A stretch of 64,000 nt of DNA from positions 2,688,001-2,752,000 of the forward strand of contig OZ242214.1 in the NCBI GenBank assembly GCA_965206595.1. Direction: 5' to 3'. The DNA comes from Candidatus Latescibacterota bacterium. GTDB lineage: Bacteria > Latescibacterota > UBA2968 > UBA8231. This document shows, piece by piece, positions 41,066 through 64,000 of the stretch (position 1 is its first letter; each line of letters opens with the position of its first letter). The translations under genes and the position numbers were made by a program. Under the pieces are notes generated by a model. That model was not told where the DNA came from and ran no database searches. It saw nothing but the letters and a program-made list of their open reading frames with translations.

Positions 41066-44000
41066 TCAACCCGCGGCCGCCTGCTCGTAAGCGAGGCCGA
41101 ACACCGTATCCGCCATCCAGCGCTTGAATCCGGGGTCGTCCATGAATCTCTTGAATAGCTGGGCGTCGTCCTTCATCACGGAATTCATAACCCGGACCAG
41201 CACCTTGTCGCCCTCGATACGAGTGTTCTCGCGATCGGAGTTCTGCCGGGCATTGCGGAAGGCGGTGTCCGCGGCCACCCGGGTGGGAATGGTCTCGGTG
41301 ATGAGCTGTCCTACCCGGTCGGCGTCGTCCCAGTCGGTCGCCCAGTGCTCGTTGAAGGCTCTGAGAATGTTCGACAGCCGGTCCAGCTCCGGCTCGGTTT
41401 TGCTGCCTCCGCCGGCGGTCGGCACCGGGTCGACCTCACCGTCCTCGTCCGGCAGCAGGATCTTCTGCATCGCCTGCTTCTCGACCCGGTAACTGTCGAG
41501 GTCGATGGCGTCGAGGATGCCCTTCGACAGGTCCTCTTCCTCGGGGGCCGGCAGCTTCGGGATCAGGAGGTTCAGGAAGATCGAGCGCTTCTCCCACCCG
41601 GGGTCGTTGTAGGGAAGCACGGACGACAGAAAGGCGTAGGTGCGCGTGAACCCCTTGGCGTTCCCCTTGAACCGCACCTGTCCGTCCTCGTCCAGGTCGC
41701 TCCTGTAGACGGCCACGCAGGCGTCGAGGACCGGGTCGAGCTGGTCGCGCTCGGCCCCTCCGAGGTAGCGCCGCACCAAATCGTCGACCTGCTCCTCGGA
41801 ATAGACCTGGGCGCCGTCGAGGTCCGCCTGCAGGTCGTGCAGCTTGTCGGGGTCGGTCTCGTCGGCCAGGATGGTGGCGCGGTAGTAGTCGGCGAACGCC
41901 TCACTCATGGTGTCGGCGTCGTTGAAGAAATCGAGCACGAACACGTCGTGCTTCCTGGGGTGCGCCCGGTTGAGGCGGGACAGGGTCTGCACCGCCTTGA
42001 TGCCGGACAGGGTCTTGTCGACGTACATCGTGTGCAGCAGCGGCTCGTCGTACCCGGTCTGGAACTTGTCGGCGCAGACCAGGAAGCGGTAGGGATCCTC
42101 CTGGAACTGCGCGGCGATTCTCCCGGACGGAAAGCCGTTGAGCGACGCCTCGCTGACCTTCTCCCCGCCGAACTCGTGCTCACCGGAGAAGGCGACGAGG
42201 GCCCGGTAGCGGCTCTTGCGCTCCTGCAGGTAGTCGCGGATCGCGTGGTAGTACTGGATCGCCCGCTCGATGCCGTTGGTGACCACCATCGCCCGCGCGG
42301 CGCCGCCGATCTTGTTCTGCGCCAGCACCTGGTCGTGGAAGTGGTCGACCATGATCTCGGCCTTGAGCCCGATCGCGTGGTCGCTCCCCTCGACGAAGCG
42401 GCGCAGCTTCTTCTGCGCCTTCCTGACGTCGAACTCCGGGTCCTCTTCCACGGTCTTGGCGAGCTTGTAGTAGCTGTTCACCGGCAGGTAGTGGGAGAGC
42501 ACGTCGAGGATGAACCCCTCCTGGATCGCCTGCTTCATGGTGTAGCTGTGGAAGGCGTGGTGCCTGATTGTGCCGTCGGCCTGCGGGTCCTGGGCGCCGA
42601 AGATCTCCAGGGTCTTGTTCTTGGGCGTGGCGGTGAAGGCGAAGTAGCTGGCGTTGGGCAGCAGCTTGCGCGACTCCATCAGGCGGTTGATGCGGTCCTC
42701 GAAGGTTTCCCCCTCCTCCTCTTCCCCTGCCTCGGAGAGCGCCCGCGCCATGGCCGCGCTGGTTTGGCCGCCCTGGCTGGAGTGGGCCTCGTCGATGATG
42801 ATGGCGAAGCTGCGCCCGCGCTGCTCGTTGCCGATCTCGTCGAGGATGAACGGGAACTTCTGGATCGTCGAGATGATGATCTTCTTGCCGCTCTCGATGA
42901 AGCGGCGCAGGTCGCCGGAGCGGTCGGCGTGCCCCACCGTCGCCGACACCTGGGAATACTGCCTGATCGTGTCGCTGATCTGCCGGTCGAGAAGCACCCG
43001 GTCGGTGACGACGATGATCGAGTCGAAGACCGGGGCGCCGTCCTTCGCCAGTCCGATCAGCTGGTGGGCAAGCCAGGCAATGGAGTTGCTCTTGCCGCTG
43101 CCGGCCGAGTGCTGGATCAGGTAACGACCGCCCGCGCCGCGGTCCCCTGCGTCGGCCAGCAGGCGGCGCACCACGTCGAGCTGATGGTAGCGCGGCCAGA
43201 CCTGGGTCCGCTTCCTCCTGCCCGTCTTCTCGTCCTTCGACTCCACCACCTGGGCGTAGTTCTCCAGGATGTTGGTCAGGCTCTCCCGGCTCAGCACCTC
43301 CCGCCACAGGTAGCCGGCCTTGATGCCGCTGGCGTTGGGCGGGTTGCCGGCGCCGTCGTTCCAGCCGCGGTTGAAGGGCAGGAACCAGGAGGCCTTGCCG
43401 CTGAGGTGGGTGCAGAACTGGACCTCGCTCTCGTCCACCGCGAAGTGGGCGACGCAGCGGCCCAGCTCGAACAGCTTCTCGCGCGGGTTGCGGTCGCGCT
43501 GATACTGCTGGACGGCGTCGTCGACCGTCTGCTTGGTGAGGCTGTTCTTCAGCTCGAAGGTGAAGACCGGCAGGCCGTTGACGAACAGCCCGATGTCGAG
43601 CGCCCGCTGGGTTTCGTCGCGGCTGTAGCGAAGCTGGCGGGTGACGGTGAAGCGGTTCTGCCGGAAGCGCTCCTGCGCCTCCGGGTTGTCGGCCGAGGGA
43701 GTGCCGTAGAACAGGTCGAGGTCGTGGGCCCCGTGCCGGATGCCGTGGCGCAGCACGTCGATGGTGCCGCGCTTGCTGATCTCACCCTGGAGCCGGGCCA
43801 GGAACCGGCGGCGAGTGGGGTTGGCCTCGGACAAGCCGAGTGACTCCGATGCCTCGGGCTGGGTGGCGCGCAGGAAGGCGGAAAGCTGAGCCAGGTCGAC
43901 GCAGTACTCGCGGTCGTAGTCGTGGAAGTTGCCGCCGGCCCAACCGACTCCGCCGTAGCTGGCAGGGGGCTCGCCCGCGGTGGGACCCGGGGGCGGGTCG

Positions 44001-44077
44001 CAGGGATGGCCGGCCAGCGCGCTGCAGATGAGGCGTTCGAGGCCGCGTTCGGAGGTGTCGGTGGTCCTAACGGTCAT
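41066..44077 (-). CDS. hsdR: Type I restriction endonuclease subunit R
   Basis: DIGLFVNGLPVFTFELKN, HSAGSGKS, DEAHSSQ, FTATPK, KFQTGYDEP, QTLSRLNR; GGAGGAGG RBS. Confidence 0.96.
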   Translation of the reverse strand: MTVRTTDTSERGLERLICSALAGHPCDPPPGPTAGEPPASYGGVGWAGGNFHDYDREYCVDLAQLSAFLRATQPEASESLGLSEANPTRRRFLARLQGEISKRGTIDVLRHGIRHGAHDLDLFYGTPSADNPEAQERFRQNRFTVTRQLRYSRDETQRALDIGLFVNGLPVFTFELKNSLTKQTVDDAVQQYQRDRNPREKLFELGRCVAHFAVDESEVQFCTHLSGKASWFLPFNRGWNDGAGNPPNASGIKAGYLWREVLSRESLTNILENYAQVVESKDEKTGRRKRTQVWPRYHQLDVVRRLLADAGDRGAGGRYLIQHSAGSGKSNSIAWLAHQLIGLAKDGAPVFDSIIVVTDRVLLDRQISDTIRQYSQVSATVGHADRSGDLRRFIESGKKIIISTIQKFPFILDEIGNEQRGRSFAIIIDEAHSSQGGQTSAAMARALSEAGEEEEGETFEDRINRLMESRKLLPNASYFAFTATPKNKTLEIFGAQDPQADGTIRHHAFHSYTMKQAIQEGFILDVLSHYLPVNSYYKLAKTVEEDPEFDVRKAQKKLRRFVEGSDHAIGLKAEIMVDHFHDQVLAQNKIGGAARAMVVTNGIERAIQYYHAIRDYLQERKSRYRALVAFSGEHEFGGEKVSEASLNGFPSGRIAAQFQEDPYRFLVCADKFQTGYDEPLLHTMYVDKTLSGIKAVQTLSRLNRAHPRKHDVFVLDFFNDADTMSEAFADYYRATILADETDPDKLHDLQADLDGAQVYSEEQVDDLVRRYLGGAERDQLDPVLDACVAVYRSDLDEDGQVRFKGNAKGFTRTYAFLSSVLPYNDPGWEKRSIFLNLLIPKLPAPEEEDLSKGILDAIDLDSYRVEKQAMQKILLPDEDGEVDPVPTAGGGSKTEPELDRLSNILRAFNEHWATDWDDADRVGQLITETIPTRVAADTAFRNARQNSDRENTRIEGDKVLVRVMNSVMKDDAQLFKRFMDDPGFKRWMADTVFGLAYEQAAAG

Positions 44078-44168
44078 ACCTGCCTCCTCCGACCAGACCA
44101 TTCAATCACGTGTAAGTCCGTCGTAGTCCTGCCGGTTGGACCAGTCCCTTTTAGAGTGCTGGGACTTT

Positions 44169-45257
44169 CTACATTGCAAAGCAGAAGTCGTGCTCCTGGA
44201 ACTGTGACACCTTCGCGCCGTGAAACGAGTTCGCCTGCGTTTTGTCGACTTCGGAAGTGACCCCATCGTCGACAAGCTGTACCTCGCGGCCAAGACCTCC
44301 CGTCAAGGAACGCAGCAATCCCTCTCTCAACTCGGGTTTATTCAATCGGCGCCCTCCGATCCGAATGACCATCCTCGCCCGTCCTGCCAATAGAGGTCCC
44401 AGTCCCGCCATAGACGCCTGGATGAATGTCCAGTAGTTGTCCTTGTTGCGGTGTCGATCGTCTCCCCGCCCGCGCAGCACCAACGGCTCCCCGTCGAGAA
44501 ACCACAGCCGCAGCCACTGATCCTCGCGGTAGTTGGTGGTGTCGAGGTACGGCGGCGATGTAATCACGTCGGTAACTCGACCTGTAAGGTCCGGGAACTT
44601 GCAGGCGGCCAGACGAGCGTCGGTCTGAATCACCTTCGCGGATCCCTCCGGGGGAGGGGTCCGGAACCGGTATTCGAGCATCCGTTCGAGGATCTCGAAG
44701 ACATCCCGCGGCGGCGGGGTATTTCCGAATCGCCTCCACCATCGAATCGAATAATCCGGCTTCGTGCTGATAGTGCGGGGCATGCGGTTGCTGAAGTAAT
44801 TGGGGGAGCGGTGGGACTCACCATGCAGCGCACCGAGGCACAGCGCCGCGATGAACCGGTCGTCCTTGCGGTTGCGCCAATCCAGCACCGATCGCAGGTA
44901 ACGCACTTGCAGCAGTGTGTCCCGGTGAAAGCAAAGGTCGAAGAACTCTCCCAAGCTGCCCTGCCACCCCAAGTCATCCGGCTCGTAGCATCCCTGCCTC
45001 AACTCGTTGAGTCGCGTCCTGACTTTCGAGAATCCAGGCGGGTTGCTCTTGGCTCCCGAGACGCAGACCGCCACCGGGTTCAGATCGCAGCCGGCCGCTG
45101 CCCGCCCCTGGAGCAGCGCTTGAAAAACAGTCGTTCCCCGCCCGCAGTACGGATCGAAGACAATCCCGTTGTACCGACTCGCCGCAAGATGCTTCTCGAC
45201 GAACCTCTCCGGGAACATCGCGAAGTAGGGACAGATCGAGTGGAACCGATGTCTCAT
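44169..45257 (-). CDS. DNA methyltransferase (SPPY type, probably N4-cytosine)
   Basis: PYFAMFP, VFDPYCGRGTT, DLNPVA, VITSPPY; ATGA overlap with upstream gene. Confidence 0.88.
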   Translation of the reverse strand: MRHRFHSICPYFAMFPERFVEKHLAASRYNGIVFDPYCGRGTTVFQALLQGRAAAGCDLNPVAVCVSGAKSNPPGFSKVRTRLNELRQGCYEPDDLGWQGSLGEFFDLCFHRDTLLQVRYLRSVLDWRNRKDDRFIAALCLGALHGESHRSPNYFSNRMPRTISTKPDYSIRWWRRFGNTPPPRDVFEILERMLEYRFRTPPPEGSAKVIQTDARLAACKFPDLTGRVTDVITSPPYLDTTNYREDQWLRLWFLDGEPLVLRGRGDDRHRNKDNYWTFIQASMAGLGPLLAGRARMVIRIGGRRLNKPELREGLLRSLTGGLGREVQLVDDGVTSEVDKTQANSFHGAKVSQFQEHDFCFAM

Positions 45258-46252
45258 GCGGCCGCTGCACTCCCCCGGTTGCGGTAGTCTGTGACCCATT
45301 GCGCGACTTCCTCCAGCTGATCGTACCCCTCAATCCCAACACCGGCCTCCACGAGCCGAGCGGCTTCTGCCACACGACGGGGAACACGAAGCCGGTGCAG
45401 CACGTTCCCCATCACGCGAACGTCGTCGACGAACTGATCGTCGGCCGTGGCGAACGGGACAATCATGTAGGCGATGAAATCGGTCACCGGCGGCGTCCCG
45501 AACCACCGGCCCTTGAACGCGTTCAGATGACCCTTGAGCGACTTTTCCCTCGCATTACGGCCAGTGGCGACCTGGGCGGCGGCGAAAGGAAACCCCGGTA
45601 GCCCATCAGGGTGCGGGCGGGCAGCGAAAACATCGATCTGATCGTCTTTGGGCTGCCGCGGAGCTCCGATCTGCGGCTCGACCCTTCCGTCGCCGAGCTT
45701 TACCCAAATCTGTTTCAGCTTGTTGAGAAAACCCGATCTGTCCGGTCGTGGAAAACCGAACGACCACGCTACGCCCTGAATCTCTGCGGCCAAAGCAGCG
45801 GTCGCGAAATATTGAAAGTACTCCCGCAATTTCCCCACCTCTGCACAATCGGGATGAAGACCCGAACCATCGAGCATCGGCGTGAAGGCCCGCAGGTTCG
45901 AAAGGACAAGGCTCAGGATGTACGCTGCCTGCCCGAACGATTCATCGTCCATCTCGTACCACAACAGGTTTCCGTCAGAATCAAGCCTGAAGGGATAAGC
46001 CGAGTCCAACGCGTCCTGTCGCGTCTCGATCCTGTTCACCGCGCTTGAGACAATCTCTTCCTCTCCCTCCTGCATTTCCCCTTGCAGATCGCCATGATCC
46101 TCCGCCGCCCCGAGTGTCGCAGCGTTGGCGAGTTCAGAAGTCAGGACCGTGGAGTCATCTGCAAAGAATGCGGTTAACTCCAGAAAATCGGCGGCGAGAT
46201 CGACATCGATCGACGGTCCGGAAACCGCGTCTATTGGTAGATAAAGAGGCAT
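45254..46252 (-). CDS. Hypothetical protein, putative PD-(D/E)xK-type nuclease
   Basis: KDDQIDVFAAR...AAAQVATGRN resembles a D..D..QxxxG restriction-endonuclease variant; translationally coupled on both sides. Confidence 0.55.
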   Translation of the reverse strand: MPLYLPIDAVSGPSIDVDLAADFLELTAFFADDSTVLTSELANAATLGAAEDHGDLQGEMQEGEEEIVSSAVNRIETRQDALDSAYPFRLDSDGNLLWYEMDDESFGQAAYILSLVLSNLRAFTPMLDGSGLHPDCAEVGKLREYFQYFATAALAAEIQGVAWSFGFPRPDRSGFLNKLKQIWVKLGDGRVEPQIGAPRQPKDDQIDVFAARPHPDGLPGFPFAAAQVATGRNAREKSLKGHLNAFKGRWFGTPPVTDFIAYMIVPFATADDQFVDDVRVMGNVLHRLRVPRRVAEAARLVEAGVGIEGYDQLEEVAQWVTDYRNRGSAAAA

Positions 46253-53981: not shown

Positions 53982-55007
53982 TTACCAGCAGGTCCTCTTG
54001 GATCCGGAGAGCATCCCTGCATCCGGGATATGGCCCTGTTGCAGTCCGTTGATTTCACCGGGCTTTTCCACCTTCCTGACCTTGCGGAAGGGTTCGCCCT
54101 CCTTCCACCGATGATGAGTGAAGGGTCTCGGGGGGACCTCCGTCGCCAGCAGATCCCGGTGGGTCAGCGGCTTCCCAACCATGCCGGAAACAAGGGATTT
54201 CATCTGATCCAGGGTATCCATTCCTCGAAGATTGTGCCTGCCTGTGATCTCGTTGAGGTATTGGGGCAAATACTTGGGAGATAGGTGGCGATAGATGCCG
54301 TAGGTTCCCTTGATCTGAGAATTGAACGATTCAGCACGGTTCGTTGTGGCGTCGTCCCTGGCGTATTCACCGTTTTTGTGATTGACGACTTCGTGCCTTG
54401 CCGCCCATCGGAAATCGGAGTAGGCGGGTAACTCGTCGGTAAAAAGGGTGCCCCCCCGGCGTAGGTGTTTCTTCACGAAAGCGGACAAGGTCTCTTCCGT
54501 CTTTTTGAGGATCACCTCGGCGGCTACGCTGCCGGTTTCTCGGTCGTACATTACGGCGGCGATGCTGACGCCCTTCTGCCACTGGCGACCGAATTTCTTG
54601 TTGCGGTGCCTGTTTGGATCTTCTCCTCCGATATTGACTTCGTCTACTTCACCGACATTGCAGTTGAGGCTTTCCTGTTTGGGCCAGCCTTCCCGGATGC
54701 GATGCAGCATGAACAATGCGGATTTCTCCGTTAGGCCGAGGTCAAAGGCGAGCTGCCTGCCGCTGATTCCGTAGGGCCGGGTCAGATGCAGGTGAATTCC
54801 GATAGCCCACTTCCGCAAGGGGATCTTGGAGTTGGCCAAAACCGACCCGGTGCGAACGCTGAAGTGCTTCCGGCAGTCGCCGCACCAGTAGGGCCTGTTC
54901 GAGCGGTTGCGGCAGGCCGTAATCCGGTCGCAGCATCCGCAGTGAGGGCAGTATATGCGAACAGGAAGCCCGTCTACGAGCTCCCCCATCTGTCTTCGTC
55001 GAGCCAT
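53982..55007 (-). mobile_element. IS1595-family transposase, copy 1 (N-terminus truncated/frameshifted)
   Basis: CPHC..CGDC zinc ribbon, EVDE, FTDE, VNH, TNRAESF, GKPLTH. Confidence 0.85.
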
Positions 55008-55242: not shown

Positions 55243-56151
55243 CTACTCCAAAGAGGCTTTGATCCGTCCCCAGGTAACGGACTCGACTGCCGTAGCCTGA
55301 GCGGGAAGCAACAGCCCATCGAGAAAGATATCCGCCATTGAATGAAACAGCCACCGGAAGGCTTCCTCGTCGTCAATGCCTTCCGGGTTCCAGGGTACTG
55401 GAGTATCTACATCAACGGAGGGATCGGAGGGATCGGAGTCGTGGATGACAGGTGCGAAACCGATGATCTGATTGGCGGACAGCTCGCTGAAAGGGATTTC
55501 AGCTATGCTGTCGCCCCATCCGTCCTGTGGCGTGACATACATCTCGACAACCCAGACAAAGGGGTTTTCTCCAGCTACACTTCCACCCGCATCTCCGTAG
55601 GGCGGGGAGGTGTGCCAGGGTTGGAGAAAGCTGTGTTCGCTGGCCAAGGTTGGGCCGCTTACTGTTCGTGAAATGGCCTCGTATTTCTGCGTTTCTCCAT
55701 AACTCGGCAATCTATCCTCAAGCGTACCGTAGCCATGGATGAATCCTTTGCCGCCGCTATGATCCGCATCGAGGTAAAGCGTAATGCTGTCATTAAGGGG
55801 AATCCATGGTATGATACCCTCTCCAGACCAATCATGGTTGTTCTCGTATTCATCGTCGATTACGATGAAGGCTGCATATATTCGGTTCAGTTCGTCGTGC
55901 CAAGCCAGCCAGATGCGGAAGTCGAGGTTGGAGGGATCAGGAGGGATATAATCATCGTTGGTCTTGAAATCCAGCAGGGTCATGTTGGGTTCGCCGATCT
56001 CATACCACTCGTCGACAAATCCATCGTGTATATTGATTTTTCTCAGCATTTCATCGGTAAGCTCGTAGAAGGGGTACAGGCGATTCCCGCTATGCGCTTC
56101 ACCCAAGCTCGCAAAAATCAGGACGATAAGAAGTCCACTAAGTACCTGCAT
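55243..56151 (-). CDS. Secreted protein with C-terminal TAVESVTWGRIKA motif (possibly CBM9/DOMON-like), copy 1
   Basis: Signal peptide MQVLSGLLIVLIFASLGEA; IHDGFVDEW, LAW, DD, DSITLYLDAD and EMY resemble CBM9/DOMON-like sandwiches. Confidence 0.75.
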   Translation of the reverse strand: MQVLSGLLIVLIFASLGEAHSGNRLYPFYELTDEMLRKINIHDGFVDEWYEIGEPNMTLLDFKTNDDYIPPDPSNLDFRIWLAWHDELNRIYAAFIVIDDEYENNHDWSGEGIIPWIPLNDSITLYLDADHSGGKGFIHGYGTLEDRLPSYGETQKYEAISRTVSGPTLASEHSFLQPWHTSPPYGDAGGSVAGENPFVWVVEMYVTPQDGWGDSIAEIPFSELSANQIIGFAPVIHDSDPSDPSVDVDTPVPWNPEGIDDEEAFRWLFHSMADIFLDGLLLPAQATAVESVTWGRIKASLE

Positions 56152-56173: not shown

Positions 56174-57058
56174 TCAGAAGTCAACCAATCGAACCAGCCA
56201 GCCCCAAAAGGGCTCAGGACGGCTGGACAGGAAGCAATAGTTATCCCCATCCGGTGACCATGACAGCTGCAAGTCACTTTCATGGGAAGGAAGCCGGGTT
56301 ACCTTCGTTCCCTTCACGTAGACGCCTCCTATCCCATCTCGGTTGGAGAGAAATGCAACCTCTCCCTTTGAAGTCCAAACCGGATTCCAGTCTTTCGCGA
56401 AATGGTTTGTCATTCTTGTAATCGTCCCATCTAAATCTGCAATACAGATTTCCGGGTTACCGTAGCGGATGCACTCGAAGGCAATTCGAGTGCCTTCGGG
56501 CGACCACGCAGGACGAACATCCGGGCTGTCATGGCGGGTGAGGTTGCGGAGACGGCCTTCTTGGTCCGCAAGATAGATTTCCATGTTGCTGTCTCGGTAG
56601 GTTGTAAAAGCAAGTAGGCCGTTCTTTGACCAAGCTGGAAGAATTCCGTCCTGAATGATTTTCTTAATCTGGCCATCCTCAAGGTTCAAACTGAAGATAT
56701 CGTACGACTCTGCCTCCTCCGCGCCACCCCCAAATGCGATCTCAGTGCTGTTGGGATGCCAGGACATGCCAAGGGTGAAGGTCAGTGGTGATGGCATAGG
56801 AATCGTTTTCAACCGGTCCCCATCAGTTGAGATAAGTTGAAATGCGTTATCCTGTCGATCATGGTAGAGGATGTGTTGGCCATCTGGAGACCAAATGGGG
56901 TTAAAAGCCCCAGAATCAGACAGTCGCCGAACCTGATCGTTAATTTTGCAATAAACACTCCCGCTTTCGTGCCCATCCACAGGAGATAGCAAGAGGAGCA
57001 AGAGAGGCCCTATTCTAACGAAGCCCTGTTTAATTCCCATGGATTCGGAGAGGCCCAC
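56174..57058 (-). CDS. Secreted TolB-like PD40-repeat beta-propeller protein
   Basis: PIWSPDG, PAWSKNG, PAWSPEG, SWSPDG repeats; LLLLLS signal; start could be ~57040. Confidence 0.85.
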   Translation of the reverse strand: MGLSESMGIKQGFVRIGPLLLLLLSPVDGHESGSVYCKINDQVRRLSDSGAFNPIWSPDGQHILYHDRQDNAFQLISTDGDRLKTIPMPSPLTFTLGMSWHPNSTEIAFGGGAEEAESYDIFSLNLEDGQIKKIIQDGILPAWSKNGLLAFTTYRDSNMEIYLADQEGRLRNLTRHDSPDVRPAWSPEGTRIAFECIRYGNPEICIADLDGTITRMTNHFAKDWNPVWTSKGEVAFLSNRDGIGGVYVKGTKVTRLPSHESDLQLSWSPDGDNYCFLSSRPEPFWGWLVRLVDF

Positions 57059-57254: not shown

Positions 57255-57482
57255 TCACTGGTCACAACACATGCATTGATAGCCGTTCCCGTAAAGCTCG
57301 GCATGACTATGGCTATGACTCCAGCAGTGGTAGCCACACATCCATTGCTGTGCTACGGATGTATGGTGGCCGTATTCCTCAAGCGATCGCGGAGGAGAGT
57401 GAGCACCAACATAGGTAATGGCAGTTAGAGAGACTCCAATTGCCATCAAAGCGCTAATTATGAGGCTTTTTCGGCGAATCAT
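57255..57482 (-). CDS. Small secreted Cys/His-rich peptide, paralog 1 (75 aa)
   Basis: GAGGAGG RBS; 27-aa signal ending VGA; aligns without gaps to the paralog at 61417. Confidence 0.85.
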   Translation of the reverse strand: MIRRKSLIISALMAIGVSLTAITYVGAHSPPRSLEEYGHHTSVAQQWMCGYHCWSHSHSHAELYGNGYQCMCCDQ

Positions 57483-57563
57483 TACAACCTCCTCTTGGGA
57501 GAGAGAACCTTTGGGAATGTCGGGCGACAAGCCCAACAGCTTAGTAAGCAAGCTAATGAATCT

Positions 57564-57585
57564 GTTGATGGTTTTGCAAGGAAAA
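57564..57585 (-). promoter_or_regulatory. Conserved upstream motif of peptide genes, candidate -35 (TTGCAA)
   Basis: TTTTCCTTGCAAAACCATCAAC here vs TTTTCCCTTGCAAAATACCAACAAC at 61756-61780. Confidence 0.5.
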
Positions 57586-57830
57586 AGACAAGGATACAAA
57601 AACCATCGTAGGAAGATACGGAAGGGAAGGCTACGAGCAGGGTTGTCGCCTTGCTGACCATCCTGATTGATTCGGGGCTTCATCCACAGACTCAGTTCTA
57701 TTCCCGGTCCGTAAAACAGTATCCTCCCGACTGACGGCAGGCTACGAGCAGGTCCTCATGGCCCCCCGAGCGCATCCTACACCTCCGGAAACAGACGAGC
57801 AGGAAACCGAGGTCCCTGTTCCGTCGAAAA

Positions 57831-58793
57831 TCAGAACCCATCCGGATTTGTCACCGTGGTGACCTTGAGAAAGGGTTCGCCCTCCTTCCACCGATGATGA
57901 GTGAAGGGTCTCGGGGGGACCTCCGTCGCCAGCAGATCCCGGTGGGTCAGCGGCTTCCCAACCATGCCGGAAACAAGGGATTTCATCTGATCCAGGGTAT
58001 CCATTCCTCGAAGATTGTGCCTGCCTGTGATCTCGTTGAGGTATTGGGGCAAATACTTGGGAGATAGGTGGCGATAGATGCCGTAGGTTCCCTTGATCTG
58101 AGAATTGAACGATTCAGCACGGTTCGTTGTGGCGTCGCCCCTGGCGTATTCCCCTTTTTTTGTGATTGACGGCTTCGTGTCTTGCCGCCCATCCGAAATC
58201 GGAATAAGAGGGATACTCGTCGGAAAAAAGCGTGCCCCCTTGGCGTAGGTGTTTCTTGATGAAAAGGGATAAGGTTCTTCCTCTGTCCTGTCGGGGATCA
58301 CCTCGGAGGCTACCTTGCCGGTGTCCGGGTCGCACATTACGCCCGCGATGCTGACGCCCTTCGCCCAGTTGTGGCCAAACCTCTTGTCGAAATGCCTGTT
58401 TTTATCGACTCCCCCGATGAAGACTTCGTCTACTTCACCGACCCGGCAGTTGAGGCTTTCCTGTTCTGGCCAGCCTTCCCGGATGCGATGCAGCATGAAC
58501 AATGCGGATTTCTCCGTTAGGCCGAGGTCAAAGGCGAGCTGCCTGCCGCTGATTCCGTAGGGCCGGGTCAGATGCAGGTGAATTCCGATAGCCCACTTCC
58601 GCAAGGGGATCTTGGAGTTGGCCAAAACCGACCCGGTGCGAACGCTGAAGTGCTTCCGGCAGGCTCCGCACCAGTAGGGCCTGTTCCCGTGTTTTCGACA
58701 CGCCGTTATCCGGTCGCAGCATCCGCAGTGAGGGCAGTATATGCGAACAGGAAGCCCGTCTACGAGCTCCCCCATCTGTCTTCGTCGAGCCAT
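57831..58793 (-). mobile_element. IS1595-family transposase, copy 2 (internal frameshifts)
   Basis: Near-identical to copy 1 at both ends; frame disrupted at about 58160-58280. Confidence 0.85.
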
Positions 58794-59028
58794 TTTTCTG
58801 CTCTGGGATCCTCAAGTGTTTAGCCCGGAACACGGCAACATGGTCATATGGCACCCTGAATCGGGGTCGATAGGCGCATCACTACCGGGTCTATTCGGGG
58901 GGCTACCGGGCAAGGAACCTCCAAATCAGAGAGCCCGTCGAGCCTGATCGTTCTGTGTGCAGAAAATTCGCCCCCTGCTTCAGATCGTGCAATCCGCTTG
59001 GGCGAGCAGGAGAAGGAGGAGAGGAGGC

Positions 59029-59928
59029 CTACTCCAAAGAGGCTTTGATCCGTCCCCAGGTAACGGACTCGACTGCCGTAGCCTGAGCGGGAAGCAACAG
59101 CCCATCGAGGAAGATATCCGCCATTGAATGAAACAGCCACCGGAGGGCTTCCTCATCGTCAATGCCTTCCGGGTTCCAGGGTATTGAAGTCTCTACATCA
59201 AAGGAGGGATCGGAGTCATTGATGACAGGTGCGAAACCGATGATCTGATTGGCGGACAGCTCGCTGAAAGGGATTTCAGCTATGCTGTCGCCCCATCCGT
59301 CCTGTGGCGTGACATACATCTCGACAACCCAGACAAAGGGGTTTTCTCCAGCTACACTTCCACCCGCATCTCCGTAGGGCGGGGAGGTGTGCCAGGGTTG
59401 GAGAAAGCTGTGTTCGCTGGCCAAGGTTGGGCCGCTTACTGTTCGTGAAATGGCAGAGTATTTCTGCGTTTCTCCATAACTCGGCAATCTATCCTCAAGC
59501 GTACCGTAGCCATGGATGAATCCTTTGCCGCCGCTATGATCCGCATCGAGGTAAAGCGTAATGCTGTCATTAAGGGGAATCCATGGTATGATACCCTCTC
59601 CAGACCAATCATGGTTGTTCTCGTATTCATCGTCGATTACGATGAAGGCTGCATATATTCGGTTCAGTTCGTCGTGCCAAGCCAGCCAGATGCGGAAGTC
59701 GAGGTTGGAGGGATCAGGAGGGATAAAATTATCGTTGGTCTTGAAATCCAGCAGGGTCATGTTGGGTTCGCCGATCTCATACCACTCGTCGATAAATCCA
59801 TCGTGTATATTGATTTTTCTCAGCATTTCATCAGTAAGCTCGTAGAAGGGGTACAGGCGATTCCCGCTATGCGCTTCACCCAAGCTCGCAAAAATCAAGA
59901 CGATAAGAAGTCCACTAAGTACCTGCAA
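59029..59928 (-). CDS. Secreted TWGRIK-tailed protein, copy 2 (TTG start)
   Basis: Near-identical to 55243..56151. Confidence 0.78.
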   Translation of the reverse strand: MQVLSGLLIVLIFASLGEAHSGNRLYPFYELTDEMLRKINIHDGFIDEWYEIGEPNMTLLDFKTNDNFIPPDPSNLDFRIWLAWHDELNRIYAAFIVIDDEYENNHDWSGEGIIPWIPLNDSITLYLDADHSGGKGFIHGYGTLEDRLPSYGETQKYSAISRTVSGPTLASEHSFLQPWHTSPPYGDAGGSVAGENPFVWVVEMYVTPQDGWGDSIAEIPFSELSANQIIGFAPVINDSDPSFDVETSIPWNPEGIDDEEALRWLFHSMADIFLDGLLLPAQATAVESVTWGRIKASLE

Positions 59929-59947
59929 AGATTACCCCTTGGGTTTC

Positions 59948-60673
59948 CATGACGACTGTTTCATTAAAGTTAGACACTCTTGTCCAAAACAATGTTTGAA
60001 AATGGTGGTTGAAGCCCTCCGGGGTGTGTTGCATGTTGTGGTGTGCAGACCAAGCAATACAACACATCACTACAACAGGAGGGCTTCGGTGTCATGGTAC
60101 GGCAAGCGAGTCTGTTCAGTCAATTGCTGCGGCAGGTGCCGCGCAGTGAATTCGATCATCTGGTACGCCAGCACGGGGCCGAGAAATGGGCGAAGGGATT
60201 CACCTGCTGGACGCAGTTCGTGGCCATGCTGTTCTGCCATCTGGGACGGGCGGACTCGCTACGTGAGATCTGCCATGGCTTGGCCTGTTGCGTAGGCAAG
60301 CTGGTGCACATCGGGATCGGCCGGGCGCCCAAGCGCTCGTCGCTGTCCTACGCCAACGCCCATCGGCCGGCGGACCTGTTCGAGGATCTGTTCTGGCACT
60401 TGGCCGATCGCCTGCGGAGTCGGGAGGGCCTCGGTCAGCGCAAGACGAAGTTCCGCTTCAAGAATAAGCTGATGAGCCTGGACTCGACGACCCTCTCCCT
60501 GTGCCTGTCGCTGTTCCCGTGGGCCCGCTTTCGACGCGCCAAGGGTGGGGTCAAGGTGCACGTGCTGCTGGACCATGACGACTACATGCCCTCCTATGTC
60601 CTGCTGACGGAGGCACGGCGACACGACCGGATGGGCGCGCGTCTGCTCAGCCTCAACCCCGGGTCCATCGTCG
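59948..60673 (+). mobile_element. IS4-family remnant (left end plus 5' half of transposase)
   Basis: LFSQLL, FTCWTQFVAMLF, SLREI, SSLSYAN, LDSTTLSL, KGGVKVH; duplication homology breaks at CATGACGACTG. Confidence 0.85.
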
Positions 60674-60689
60674 CCCCGTCAGCCCCATC

Positions 60690-61284
60690 AATCGACGCAC
60701 GCGCTTGCGGCCGACTTCATACCCCTAGCGCGGCAGGTGACGGGCCATCTGCCGCGACCCATACCAGGGCGTGGCCAGAAACTGCTCGTCGATACAGCGA
60801 ATCACCTGCCGGTTGAAGGCACTCCCTCCGACCCGCGTATACGTAGGTGGACGCGACAGGGCAACCAAGGTGCACGGGCGCACGACAGGGAGCCGGAGAT
60901 GATCTGGTTCGATCATCGCTTCCCTTCGGTCGCGGCTCAACGGCCGAAGGCGCGAGACAAAAAACGTTCTCGACGGTCAGCTGGCCGATTTTGGCGTGCA
61001 ACGCCTTGCCTCGGCCGCATGATCCGCGGCGCGGGAAGAGGTCTTGCGGGCGAACACCTCCGGCAAGCTCTCCGTGCTTGCCGTTTCCACTGCGCAATCA
61101 CGTTGGGGTGCAGGTTATGCTTGGCAGCGAGCTCGGCCAGGCCCTGGTCGCCGACCAGGGCCTCCAAGGCGACTTTGCCCTTGAACTGAGCGGAAAAGCT
61201 ACGCGGTTCCCCATGTCTCCAGTCCTTCCGAAGAGGGGTTGGATCCACCTAACGTAACTGTCCGAATTTCGGGGTCCACTTCTA
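60690..61284 (-). mobile_element. IS3-family remnant, degenerate
   Basis: FSAQFKGKVALEAL, LHAKIGQLTVE, TPWYGSRQM; end TAGAAGTGGACCCCGAAATTCGGACA. Confidence 0.82.
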
Positions 61285-61416
61285 ATTGTCCACATGCCCG
61301 TTCCCTTCCCAGTTCGTGCCGCCCTGCGCGGAGTGTATGTCCCCATCGGCGTCAGATCCTCCGCCCAGCGAAAACGGAGTATTCCGAACAGTTGCCAAGC
61401 TGGGAGAGGGTAACGT

Positions 61417-61644
61417 TCAGTCCATACACCTACAGCAATCACTGTGTGTCCCGTAAAGGTTCGCGACATTGTGATTATGGCCCCAGCAATAGTAGCCGCA
61501 CAGCCATGGTTGCGATAACGTGGCATCATGGCTGTAGTGAACCTCCGACAGCGGACGCGAATGAGCACCTACATATGCAGATTTGGCTAGAAAAACTCCA
61601 CCTGCTAGCAAAGCCGCAATTATTAAGTGCTTTTTACGAATCAT
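61417..61644 (-). CDS. Small secreted Cys/His-rich peptide, paralog 2 (75 aa)
   Basis: GAGGAG RBS; MIRKKHLIIAALLAGGVFLAKSAYVGA|HSRP...CGYYCW...CCRCMD. Confidence 0.85.
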   Translation of the reverse strand: MIRKKHLIIAALLAGGVFLAKSAYVGAHSRPLSEVHYSHDATLSQPWLCGYYCWGHNHNVANLYGTHSDCCRCMD

Positions 61645-61894
61645 TGGAACTCTCCTCAGGTTTGAGGGAATTGAAAGGGGAACTGAACCTGAGGCATTCT
61701 CCAGATACGCCAATAGACCTCAACTCAAATTCAGTCCATTTCTATATGTACTGAGGTTGTTGGTATTTTGCAAGGGAAAAAGGGGAAATGGGGAAATTGG
61801 AGAGCTGGGCCCGATCCTCGCTCCAGGATCCTGTTGCAACGGATTCTGGAGGAGAGGTAACGGAGTTGCTACGCTGACCTGCCTCTGTCTGTCG

Positions 61895-63412: not shown

Positions 63413-64000
63413 CTACTCCAAAGAGGCTTTGATCCGTCCCCAGGTAACGGACTCGACTGCCGTAGCCTGAGCGGGAAGCAACAGCCCATCGAGGAAGAGA
63501 TCCGCCATTGAATGGGGCAGCAACAGGAAGGCTTCCTCATCGTCAATGCCTTCCGGGTTCCAGGGTATTGAAGTATCTGGATCAAAGGAGGGATCGGAGT
63601 CGTTGATGACAGGTGCGAAACCGATGATCTGATTGGCGGACAGCTCGCTGAAAAGGATTTCAGCTATGCTGTCGCCCCATCCGTCCTGTGGTGTGACATA
63701 CATCTCGACAACCCAGACGAAGGGGTTTTCTCCAGCTACATTTCCACCCGCATCTCCGTAGGGCGGGGAGGTGTGCCAGGGTTGGAGAAAGCTGTGTTCG
63801 CTGGCCAAGGTTGGGCCGCTTACTGTACGTGAAATGGCATCGTACTTCTGCGTTTCTCCATAACTCGGCAATCTATCCCCAAGAGTACCGTAGCCATCGG
63901 TGAATCCTTTGCCGCCGTTGTGATCCGCATCGAGGTAAAGCGTAATGCTGTCATAAAGGTCAATCTGTGGTATGACATTCTCTCCAGACCAATCATGGTT
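63413..64000 (-). CDS. Secreted TWGRIK-tailed protein, copy 3 (5' part outside window)
   Basis: Same C-terminal half as copies 1 and 2, with patchy substitutions. Confidence 0.8.
   Translation of the reverse strand, partial: NHDWSGENVIPQIDLYDSITLYLDADHNGGKGFTDGYGTLGDRLPSYGETQKYDAISRTVSGPTLASEHSFLQPWHTSPPYGDAGGNVAGENPFVWVVEMYVTPQDGWGDSIAEILFSELSANQIIGFAPVINDSDPSFDPDTSIPWNPEGIDDEEAFLLLPHSMADLFLDGLLLPAQATAVESVTWGRIKASLE

Follow-up and report, generated by a model that had tools for sequence, protein, structure and literature searches.

The minus strand of the window analyzed here, a stretch of 64,000 nucleotides from a Candidatus Latescibacterota bacterium (contig OZ242214.1, positions 2,688,001 to 2,752,000), carries two 75-residue open reading frames (ORFs), P0001 and P0002, that encode small peptides rich in cysteine and histidine. 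The peptides belong to a rare, fast-evolving family that is confined to one genus and keeps an invariant core of four cysteines and one histidine, and their genes are never free-standing, the cassette being made up of the peptide gene, one to several genes for a secreted CBM9-like partner protein and, usually, a gene for a PD40 propeller. This cassette context changes the most likely function of the peptides. The fold predicted for them is consistent with a cysteine-stabilized alpha-beta fold (CS-alpha-beta), and we propose that they are exported CS-alpha-beta-like peptides that would bind their co-encoded CBM9-like protein, an explanation that, taken as a whole, we consider about evenly balanced between right and wrong.

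The Two Peptide Genes and Their Family

As an earlier note on this DNA had pointed out, both ORFs are hidden in longer frames: P0001 starts at an internal ATG (57482) of a 142-aa ORF at 57255-57683, and P0002 at an internal ATG (61644) of a 98-aa ORF at 61417-61713. Each ATG is preceded, a few bases 5', by the ribosome-binding site that the note had described (AGGAGG for P0001 and GAGGAG for P0002). The two products align without a gap in BLASTP, with 38 of 73 positions identical (52%; E 3e-26), and the ungapped consensus given previously was found again when the pair was re-read by eye. Both N termini show a basic start, a hydrophobic stretch and the residues V-G-A preceding a histidine, on which a 27-aa Sec signal peptide was assigned by eye, the cleavage site being taken from the A-x-A rule. 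In P0001 the predicted signal peptide is encoded by codons 1-27 (57402-57482), and the 48-aa domain that would remain after cleavage lies at 57258-57401. With this cleavage site, mature P0001 contains 5 Cys and 7 His and has a net charge (K+R minus D+E) of -3, and mature P0002 contains 5 Cys and 6 His and has a net charge of -2, in agreement with the acidic, Cys- and His-rich composition reported earlier.

The upstream motif that the two genes had been said to share was also recovered. The sequence TTTTCC(C)TTGCAAAA is present in only 3 copies in the 7.05-Mb genome when both strands are counted, and all three precede genes of this peptide subfamily, i.e. P0001, P0002 and a third peptide gene past the window end. 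The version found upstream of P0001, TTTTCCTTGCAAAA, may represent a -35-like element. A scan for consensus sigma-70 promoters and for terminators around P0001 and P0002 returned no site.

When this genome was scanned with a family hidden Markov model (HMM), 18 ORFs matched, and some of these are degraded. When 58 distinct sequences from public data were aligned, residues C49, C53, H58, C70 and C72 were invariant in all 58 rows at identities of 20-50%, which defines the core C-x3-C-x4-H ... C-x-C; H39 is kept in at least 90% of the rows, and a Trp beside the conserved His is common. The caveat raised earlier, that the C-x-C falls in a different register in the two paralogs, does not hold, because C70 and C72 align in 58/58 rows and it is the extra Cys that varies. 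The mature peptides contain 4 (9 sequences), 5 (39), 6 (2), 7 (7) or 8 (1) cysteines, so that the number is odd in 46 of the 58, and the position of the extra Cys differs among subfamilies. Their median net charge is -3 (range -7 to +3), and the median number of histidines is 4 per mature peptide.

The family is real but rare. A profile search of 5.8 billion proteins yielded 50 clusters, all unnamed and without Pfam domains, and a search of 1.84 billion proteins yielded 29 representatives, 3 of which were judged to be spurious repeat proteins. Members were found in 2 of 61 related species-representative genomes and, across the phylum, in 3 of 168; the genomes that have them belong to a single genus. 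No candidate was obtained in a single-sequence word search with P0001, and a scan of metagenome contigs of JGI with a pattern from the subfamily alignment gave 24 pattern matches and no relatives. Comparison of the peptides with Pfam, NCBIfam and PADLOC assigned no family, which supports the suggestion of the earlier note that they had not been described; matches to zf-RAG1 (E 0.54) and to RTasTM (E 0.0016, residues 12-58) were taken as chance.

Peptide Genes Head Cassettes with a CBM9-like Partner

For 17 of the 18 family-HMM matches, the same strand carries an ORF for a secreted partner of about 300 aa at most 1.5 kb further downstream, and the 18th match overlaps the stop-to-stop frame of a partner. 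The same association emerged from a family-blind screen of 91,119 ORFs, in which a signal-like start and the pattern C-x3-C-x(8-26)-C-x-C near the C terminus were asked for and position was ignored: each of the 15 ORFs retrieved has a partner ORF on the same strand no more than 1.7 kb downstream, with the limit that the pattern was written after the family had been seen. The partner family itself accounts for 90 ORF matches in this genome, which are spread over 61 arrays and include 49 of full length. Behind 11 of 16 peptide genes there is an ORF for a PD40 propeller, and 11 of the 12 close PD40 paralogues are located within 351 nt of a partner ORF.

The gene order is peptide, PD40, partner in the window, and peptide, partner(s), PD40 elsewhere in the genome and in a same-genus genome that shows the same cassette arrangement. 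P0002 is parted from its partner gene by insertion-sequence (IS) debris, with no PD40 gene between them. A third partner copy is cut by the window end, and its PD40 gene and the third peptide gene (88% identical) lie directly past that end. The absence of an adjacent modifying enzyme, noted earlier, was corroborated in that none was seen among the cassette ORFs, and a ribosomally synthesized and post-translationally modified peptide precursor was dropped as an interpretation for this reason.

The cassette duplicates as a unit, which is shown by the correlated identities of peptides and partners described below. The segment 55240-57612 is present again at genome positions 2751410-2753770, past the window end, with 96.5% identity, and the differences are unevenly spread: there is none in the 885 nt of the PD40 gene and 1 in the 81 nt of the signal-peptide part, and there are 18 in the 144 nt of the mature peptide part, amounting to 9 amino-acid changes; most of the differences fall in this part and in a loop of the partner. 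This mosaic suggests gene conversion or local diversification. The ratio of nonsynonymous to synonymous substitution rates (dN/dS) is 1.15 for the mature peptide and 1.3-1.6 for a loop of the partner (residues 231-275), values that stem from few changes and are only suggestive of positive selection on these two regions. The peptides diverge much faster than the partners: identity is about 50% between P0001 and P0002, against 96% between the partners that go with them. The idea that peptide-headed partners form one clade was rejected, since on a quick tree the label had to change 11 times for 14 rows, a number that was not exceeded in 87 of 500 shuffles.

Predicted Fold of the Peptides and Its Relation to Defensins

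AlphaFold2, run on the alignment, predicted a beta-alpha-beta-beta topology for the mature domain with a predicted local distance difference test (pLDDT) score of about 90; the means per ten-residue block over residues 41-75 are 93, 88, 92 and 83. The predicted elements are a strand at 39-42, a helix at 48-55 and strands at 60-64 and 69-73, with C49 and C53 of the C-x3-C motif in the helix and C70 and C72 of the C-x-C motif in the last strand. This placement of a C-x3-C on a helix and of a C-x-C on a strand is the one that characterizes the CS-alpha-beta fold, and it would fit two disulfides, C49-C70 and C53-C72.

When the model was compared with the Protein Data Bank (PDB) by Foldseek, no match was significant (best E 1.5), and 31 of the 46 rows listed are, by title, plant defensins, gamma-thionins, insect or scorpion defensins, mytilin or scorpion toxins. 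A second look with VIA gave 26 rows with a Z score of at least 2, among which 19 are of CS-alpha-beta kinds and 4 of PAN/apple type, with Z at most 3.5; the top row is the lectin SML-2 (Z 3.5), and the rows include the scorpion toxin ADWX-1 (Z 3.3, root mean square deviation 1.8 A over 37/37 residues) and a gamma-thionin (Z 3.1, 2.4 A over 42/47 residues). In a wide search independent of Foldseek, Z did not exceed 3.4 and 11 of 50 rows were of defensin type, the tops being a PAN-type lectin (Z 3.4) and the plant defensin AtD90 (Z 3.2). For a domain of about 45 residues, scores of this kind do not prove membership in the CS-alpha-beta fold, and a PDB sequence-profile search with the family returned only the toxin Sm2a (E 0.94) and a defensin-like protein (E 7.7).

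A further line of evidence comes from relatives with more cysteines. The family HMM matches, with E 4.1e-5, a 6-7-Cys secreted ORF elsewhere in the genome that is also located 5' of PD40 and partner genes, and this ORF and two relatives from the same-genus genome display the full C...C-x3-C...C...C-x-C pattern, with C1, C4 and G-x-C present. An hhalign comparison of the 58-member family with this 6-Cys group gave E 3.5e-4 and a probability of 37%, in the helix region. The 6-Cys profile in turn retrieved 9 PDB sequences (E 0.095-1.4), 8 of them insect defensins or a scorpion toxin, with which it aligns in the cysteine register C-x3-C / G-x-C / C-x-C, and one 6-Cys relative gave sub-threshold Pfam matches to Gamma-thionin, Toxin_3, Toxin_2 and Defensin_2 (E 0.027-0.21). 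Because these 6-Cys relatives bear the full pattern, the window peptides look like a derived, acidic and His-rich branch of defensin-pattern peptides in which the C1-C4 disulfide and the G-x-C would have been lost.

The earlier note had inferred defensin-like or metal-binding peptides and had proposed AlphaFold and Foldseek as a check. Now that this has been run, the part of the defensin-like claim that stands is the cysteine layout predicted on helix and strand, together with the kind of most structural neighbors and the existence of the 6-Cys relatives, whereas no significant structural match was obtained (E 1.5, Z no more than 3.5) and neither the acidic charge nor the missing third disulfide and G-x-C fits a canonical defensin.

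The CBM9-like Partner and the PD40 Propeller

The partner was modeled with a predicted template modeling score (pTM) of 0.83, and in this model it has the CBM9 beta-sandwich fold: Foldseek matched it to CBM9 structures of Caldicellulosiruptor and Thermotoga (7nwo, E 7.8e-10; 1i82, E 5.8e-9; TM score by target 0.72-0.76) and, more weakly, to two CBM9/DOMON-like haem subunits, NxrC and EbdC, the latter being the gamma subunit of ethylbenzene dehydrogenase. By sequence, the partner protein of the window has no Pfam match and does not reach the gathering threshold of CBM9_1, and 4 of 46 members of its family match CBM9_1 weakly (best E 6.9e-4). The Atlas clusters of a partner homologue carry a CBM9 annotation, and their source phyla are Latescibacterota, Gemmatimonadota and Poribacteria. 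The partner family is present in 73 of 75 genomes of the family to which the window organism belongs.

In an alignment of 47 partner sequences, A19 is conserved in 46 rows and H20 in all 47, and with a cleavage site placed by eye according to the A-x-A rule His20 would be the first residue of the mature protein. Three more histidines are conserved, H131 in 47, H85 in 45 and H106 in 44 rows. The window partner (55243..56151) ends in the tag ...TAVESVTWGRIKASLE, which corresponds to the form ...TAVExx[ST]WGRIKA of the cassette partners; the last 16 residues, which contain this C-terminal motif, were modeled with low confidence. The more general motif ...TAVExx[ST]WG[RS][IL]K[AS]... ends 84 ORFs of the genome, 58 of the partner family and 26 coding for other proteins, with its window copies at 55243-55290 and 59029-59076, and it looks like an undescribed sorting tag of unassigned kind.

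The neighbor that the earlier note had named TolB-like does contain the PD40 propeller (Pfam PD40, E 3.6e-20). The full TolB architecture was not recovered, the TolB model TIGR02800 being matched with 99.6 bits against a cut-off of 343 and over positions 197-387 of 418 only; judged by these profile matches, the protein is a bare PD40 propeller.

Proposed Role of the Peptides

Because the peptide never occurs without the partner, heads the operon, and carries a charge that argues against a free cationic antibiotic, we favor the reading that it binds the co-encoded CBM9-like protein, and for this binding taken by itself our confidence lies at an even balance or slightly under it. We infer that the peptide would be exported and that two disulfides (C49-C70 and C53-C72) would then lock its fold, leaving the conserved His pair (H39 and H58) and, in most members, one unpaired Cys. 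The folded peptide would bind the CBM9-like protein as a ligand, cap or cargo, and the tagged CBM9-like protein would carry or display it, either on the surface of the cell or extracellularly. A peptide acting in this way would not be a free, membrane-active cationic antibiotic.

Several observations weigh against this explanation. Across the phylum, 87 of 168 genomes contain the partner family and 3 of 168 contain the peptide family, and within this genome 15 of the 61 partner arrays are headed by such a peptide according to the pattern filter; since most arrays and genomes lack the peptide, the partner clearly works without it. The partner has no conserved Cys, and 23 of its 47 aligned rows have no Cys at all, for which reason a covalent peptide-partner disulfide was rejected. 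The identities of peptides and partners co-vary (Spearman 0.83 over 12 pairs, a value reached in 0 of 5000 permutations), which is expected from tandem duplication alone and is not proof of interaction. As to the fold, the structural scores are weak and insignificant alone, with a PAN/apple-type lectin tying at Z 3.4-3.5; none of the 58 members matches the defensin families of Pfam (Defensin_2, Gamma-thionin, Toxin_2/3) at E values up to 10; and the third disulfide (C1-C4) and the gamma-core G-x-C are absent from P0001, P0002 and the family consensus. In favor of the explanation, a weak hint of expression comes from contigs of RNA-type libraries that give neither strand nor level and that may contain DNA. 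One run on record as RNA (X10) provided a 398-nt contig over 57175-57531 that covers the entire peptide ORF and is closest to the third copy, and two runs only guessed to be RNA (X9 and X11) provided contigs of 186 and 153 nt over the peptide ORF; contigs of the RNA-type runs left the PD40 gene and the greater part of the partner gene uncovered, which is not evidence of absence.

The conserved histidines bring in metal handling as the main alternative, with the peptide as a small extracytoplasmic binder of Cu, Zn or Ni (a chaperone, "caddie" or scavenger) that would serve the N-terminal-His site of the CBM9-like protein. The peptide would use its two conserved histidines together with the N-terminal His and the Cys left unpaired, and the partner site would be of histidine-brace type. 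This fits the invariance of H58 and the retention of H39 in at least 90% of the 58 rows, the median of 4 histidines, the odd Cys count in 46 of the 58 peptides, the W-H-H-x-H cluster of one subfamily, which often carries the extra Cys, and a net acidic charge that would suit a cation binder. His is moreover the predicted first mature residue in 31 of the 58 peptides and in all 47 partners, where H131, H85 and H106 are also conserved, and distant tagged paralogues likewise begin with A-H after the signal. An N-terminal His that follows the signal peptide marks new metal-binding beta-sandwich families (PMC12537917), and YcnI provides a further case (PMC8424229). Against metal handling, the four invariant cysteines are spaced, and predicted to be placed, in a way that suits two structural disulfides, and in 27 of the 58 peptides the first mature residue is not His. 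Other Cys-rich peptides encoded 5' of partner paralogues do not have the His-rich features, and no metal-transport gene was recorded beside the cassettes in a scan of the ORFs of window positions 34-55 kb and of the cassettes. We regard metal handling as unlikely, although not far-fetched.

A bolder reading would make the cassette a new kind of three-part secreted system, present at about 60 loci per genome. In it, a CBM9-fold protein with an N-terminal His (brace-type) site would work with the PD40 propeller, and its specificity ligand, metal donor or cargo would be a defensin-fold peptide of hypervariable sequence. Such a system could be a new metal-dependent polysaccharide-acting family or a polymorphic ligand-receptor set directed toward the host or neighboring cells, and in either form it seems to us rather unlikely.

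Bacteriocin loci usually consist of a structural gene with a protective gene behind it, and a free antimicrobial peptide, i.e. a defensin-like bacteriocin that would kill competitors and have the CBM9-like protein as its immunity protein or carrier, would match that layout and the CS-alpha-beta-type predicted fold. The mature part also diverges fast (18 differences in 144 nt) in comparison with the signal part (1 in 81 nt), and bacterial cis-defensins are on record, with 74 sequences in five classes (PMC11561630). We nevertheless consider an antimicrobial function improbable, as the median net charge is -3 (range -7 to +3) and the defensins reviewed in PMC8877149 are described as cationic, the G-x-C motif is missing, and the mature dN/dS is only 1.15, obtained from 9 amino-acid changes. 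The supposed immunity gene, in addition, codes for a 300-aa secreted protein of which there are about 90 copies, and most of these have no peptide.

That one cassette encodes a beta-propeller, a beta-sandwich protein and a small peptide rich in Cys, and that a Trp is common beside the conserved His, would by analogy be compatible with the peptide being a small Cys/Trp subunit of a periplasmic enzyme built with the other two proteins. Quinoprotein amine dehydrogenases have small subunits of that sort. Against the idea, the cassettes examined showed no gene for radical-SAM, haem or flavin maturation and the PD40 gene is missing from 5 of the 16 cassettes, and we hold an enzyme subunit to be very improbable. 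To chance or decaying frames we give next to no credence: the region is rich in transposase genes and duplications and some members are clearly degraded, but five positions do not vary among 58 sequences that are 20-50% identical, ribosome-binding sites are present, the fold is predicted with confidence and RNA-library contigs cover the ORF.

Comparison with Known Systems and Significance

The closest systems described so far are the bacterial cis-defensins, which, as presented in the portion of PMC11561630 available, comprise 74 sequences in five classes (e.g. xanthusin-1) from three phyla, Latescibacterota not among them, all with three disulfides and a G-x-C and with no partner gene mentioned there. 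The window peptides share with them a signal peptide followed by a small mature domain, the C-x3-C in a helix and the C-x-C in a strand, and a long N-terminal tail, as in class IV of the cis-defensins; tails that are often acidic are a further shared feature. Unlike what that portion describes for the cis-defensins, the window family has two conserved cysteine pairs, no G-x-C, an acidic and His-rich composition and mostly an odd number of cysteines, and its genes are always tied to a CBM9-like gene.

With insect and plant defensins and the short toxins of scorpions, the peptides have in common the predicted beta-alpha-beta-beta or alpha-beta-beta topology, small whole targets superposing at 1.8-3 A, and the 6-Cys relatives align with insect defensins in cysteine register. 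They differ from the solved defensins and toxins in that Z does not go beyond 3.5, sequence identity is 10-21%, the charge is acidic and the C1-C4 disulfide is lacking. AdDLP of Anaeromyxobacter, to which the earlier note had drawn attention, has the same C-x3-C / C-x-C core with two disulfides, and it is not known to be encoded in a cassette with a CBM9-like protein.

The partner shares the fold of CBM9 modules and differs from them in being free-standing, with no glycosidase attached, in scoring below the Pfam cut-off, and in having an invariant N-terminal His, a C-terminal tag and about 90 paralogous ORFs in one genome. Like the histidine-brace-type proteins (lytic polysaccharide monooxygenases, YcnI, DUF4198 and "anglerases"), it is a predicted beta-sandwich whose first mature residue would be an invariant His; its fold family is a different one, and the terms "CBM9" and "DOMON" are absent from the main text of PMC12537917, so far as that text was accessible. 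A joint search of the literature for "defensin" and "Latescibacterota" found no paper. That relatives of this organism may live in sponges is suggested by titles of published work alone, and nothing from this genome shows it. In a sponge metaproteome study, CBM9 is among the more abundant CAZy families (PMC6081418), a result that cannot be linked to the present family.

Should the predicted fold be correct, bacterial defensin-fold peptides would gain a fourth phylum, beyond the 74 sequences from three phyla, and a new form that is acidic and His-rich and combines two conserved pairs of cysteines with an odd Cys. Through their obligate link with a CBM9-like protein and with a PD40 propeller, these peptides also acquire a concrete candidate partner. 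The partner family, in turn, is among the largest paralogue families in these genomes and has no assigned function, and if the peptide is the ligand or metal donor of the partner, it would offer a route to the function of that family.

Genomic Setting and Further Observations

The positions of the cassette genes and neighboring features are collected in Table 1.

Table 1. Coordinates of the peptide genes, their cassettes and nearby features (window positions unless the genome contig is indicated)
Feature	Position	Strand	Remarks
P0001, peptide gene 1	57255..57482	-	75 aa + stop
P0002, peptide gene 2	61417..61644	-	75 aa + stop
Upstream motif TTTTCCTTGCAAAA of P0001	57572..57585	-	TTGCAA starts 97 nt ahead of ATG
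Upstream motif TTTTCCCTTGCAAAA of P0002	61766..61780	-	TTGCAA starts 129 nt ahead of ATG
PD40 beta-propeller protein	56174..57058	-	294 aa; second gene of the P0001 cassette
CBM9-like secreted partner	55243..56151	-	302 aa; third gene of the P0001 cassette
CBM9-like partner paralogue	59029..59928	-	299 aa; downstream of P0002
Transposase fragment DUF4372 / DDE_Tnp_1	60043..60816	+	between P0002 and its partner gene
Third CBM9-like partner copy	63413..64000	-	cut by the window end
IS1595-family transposase gene	57831..58793	-	between the two cassettes
6-7-Cys secreted peptide	genome contig 2293607-2293900	-	5' of PD40 and partner genes

Among the sequences upstream of peptide genes, the exact sigma-54 pattern is in none of the three genes of the P0001/P0002 subfamily. 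An exact sigma-54-type element, GGCAC-N5-TTGC, lies 5' of 5 of 16 peptide genes, all of other subfamilies and outside the window, near genome positions 6475728, 6970119, 522678, 6984371 and 6978084. The element has 74 sites genome-wide, with 0.0018 expected per search window, and three of the genes that possess it have in common a conserved leader, recognized by eye, directly ahead of the ribosome-binding site. An Rfam search of the entire window gave no matches.

Cassette PD40 proteins carry a His at or next to the predicted cleavage site (...VDG-HESG in the window and ...ANA-HD in the same-genus genome). Directly upstream of the 6-7-Cys gene at 2293607-2293900 there is a truncated relative of that peptide. 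In other genera and in a bin labeled Gemmatimonadaceae, different secreted peptides with 8-9 Cys are encoded directly 5' of partner paralogues; they show the arrangement C-x3-C ... G-x-C ... C-x-C, and some have a long N-terminal anchor-like segment.

In the region 34000-64000 of the window, the G+C content drops from about 0.70 to 0.52-0.60. Restriction and methylase genes of type I/III are found there at 41066-45299, along with transposase genes (ISL3, DDE_3, IS1595 and DUF4372). When the IS1595 copy at 57831-58793 is compared with that at 53982-55007, the middle of the former reads another frame (ORF 58114-58335), which suggests that this copy is probably broken.

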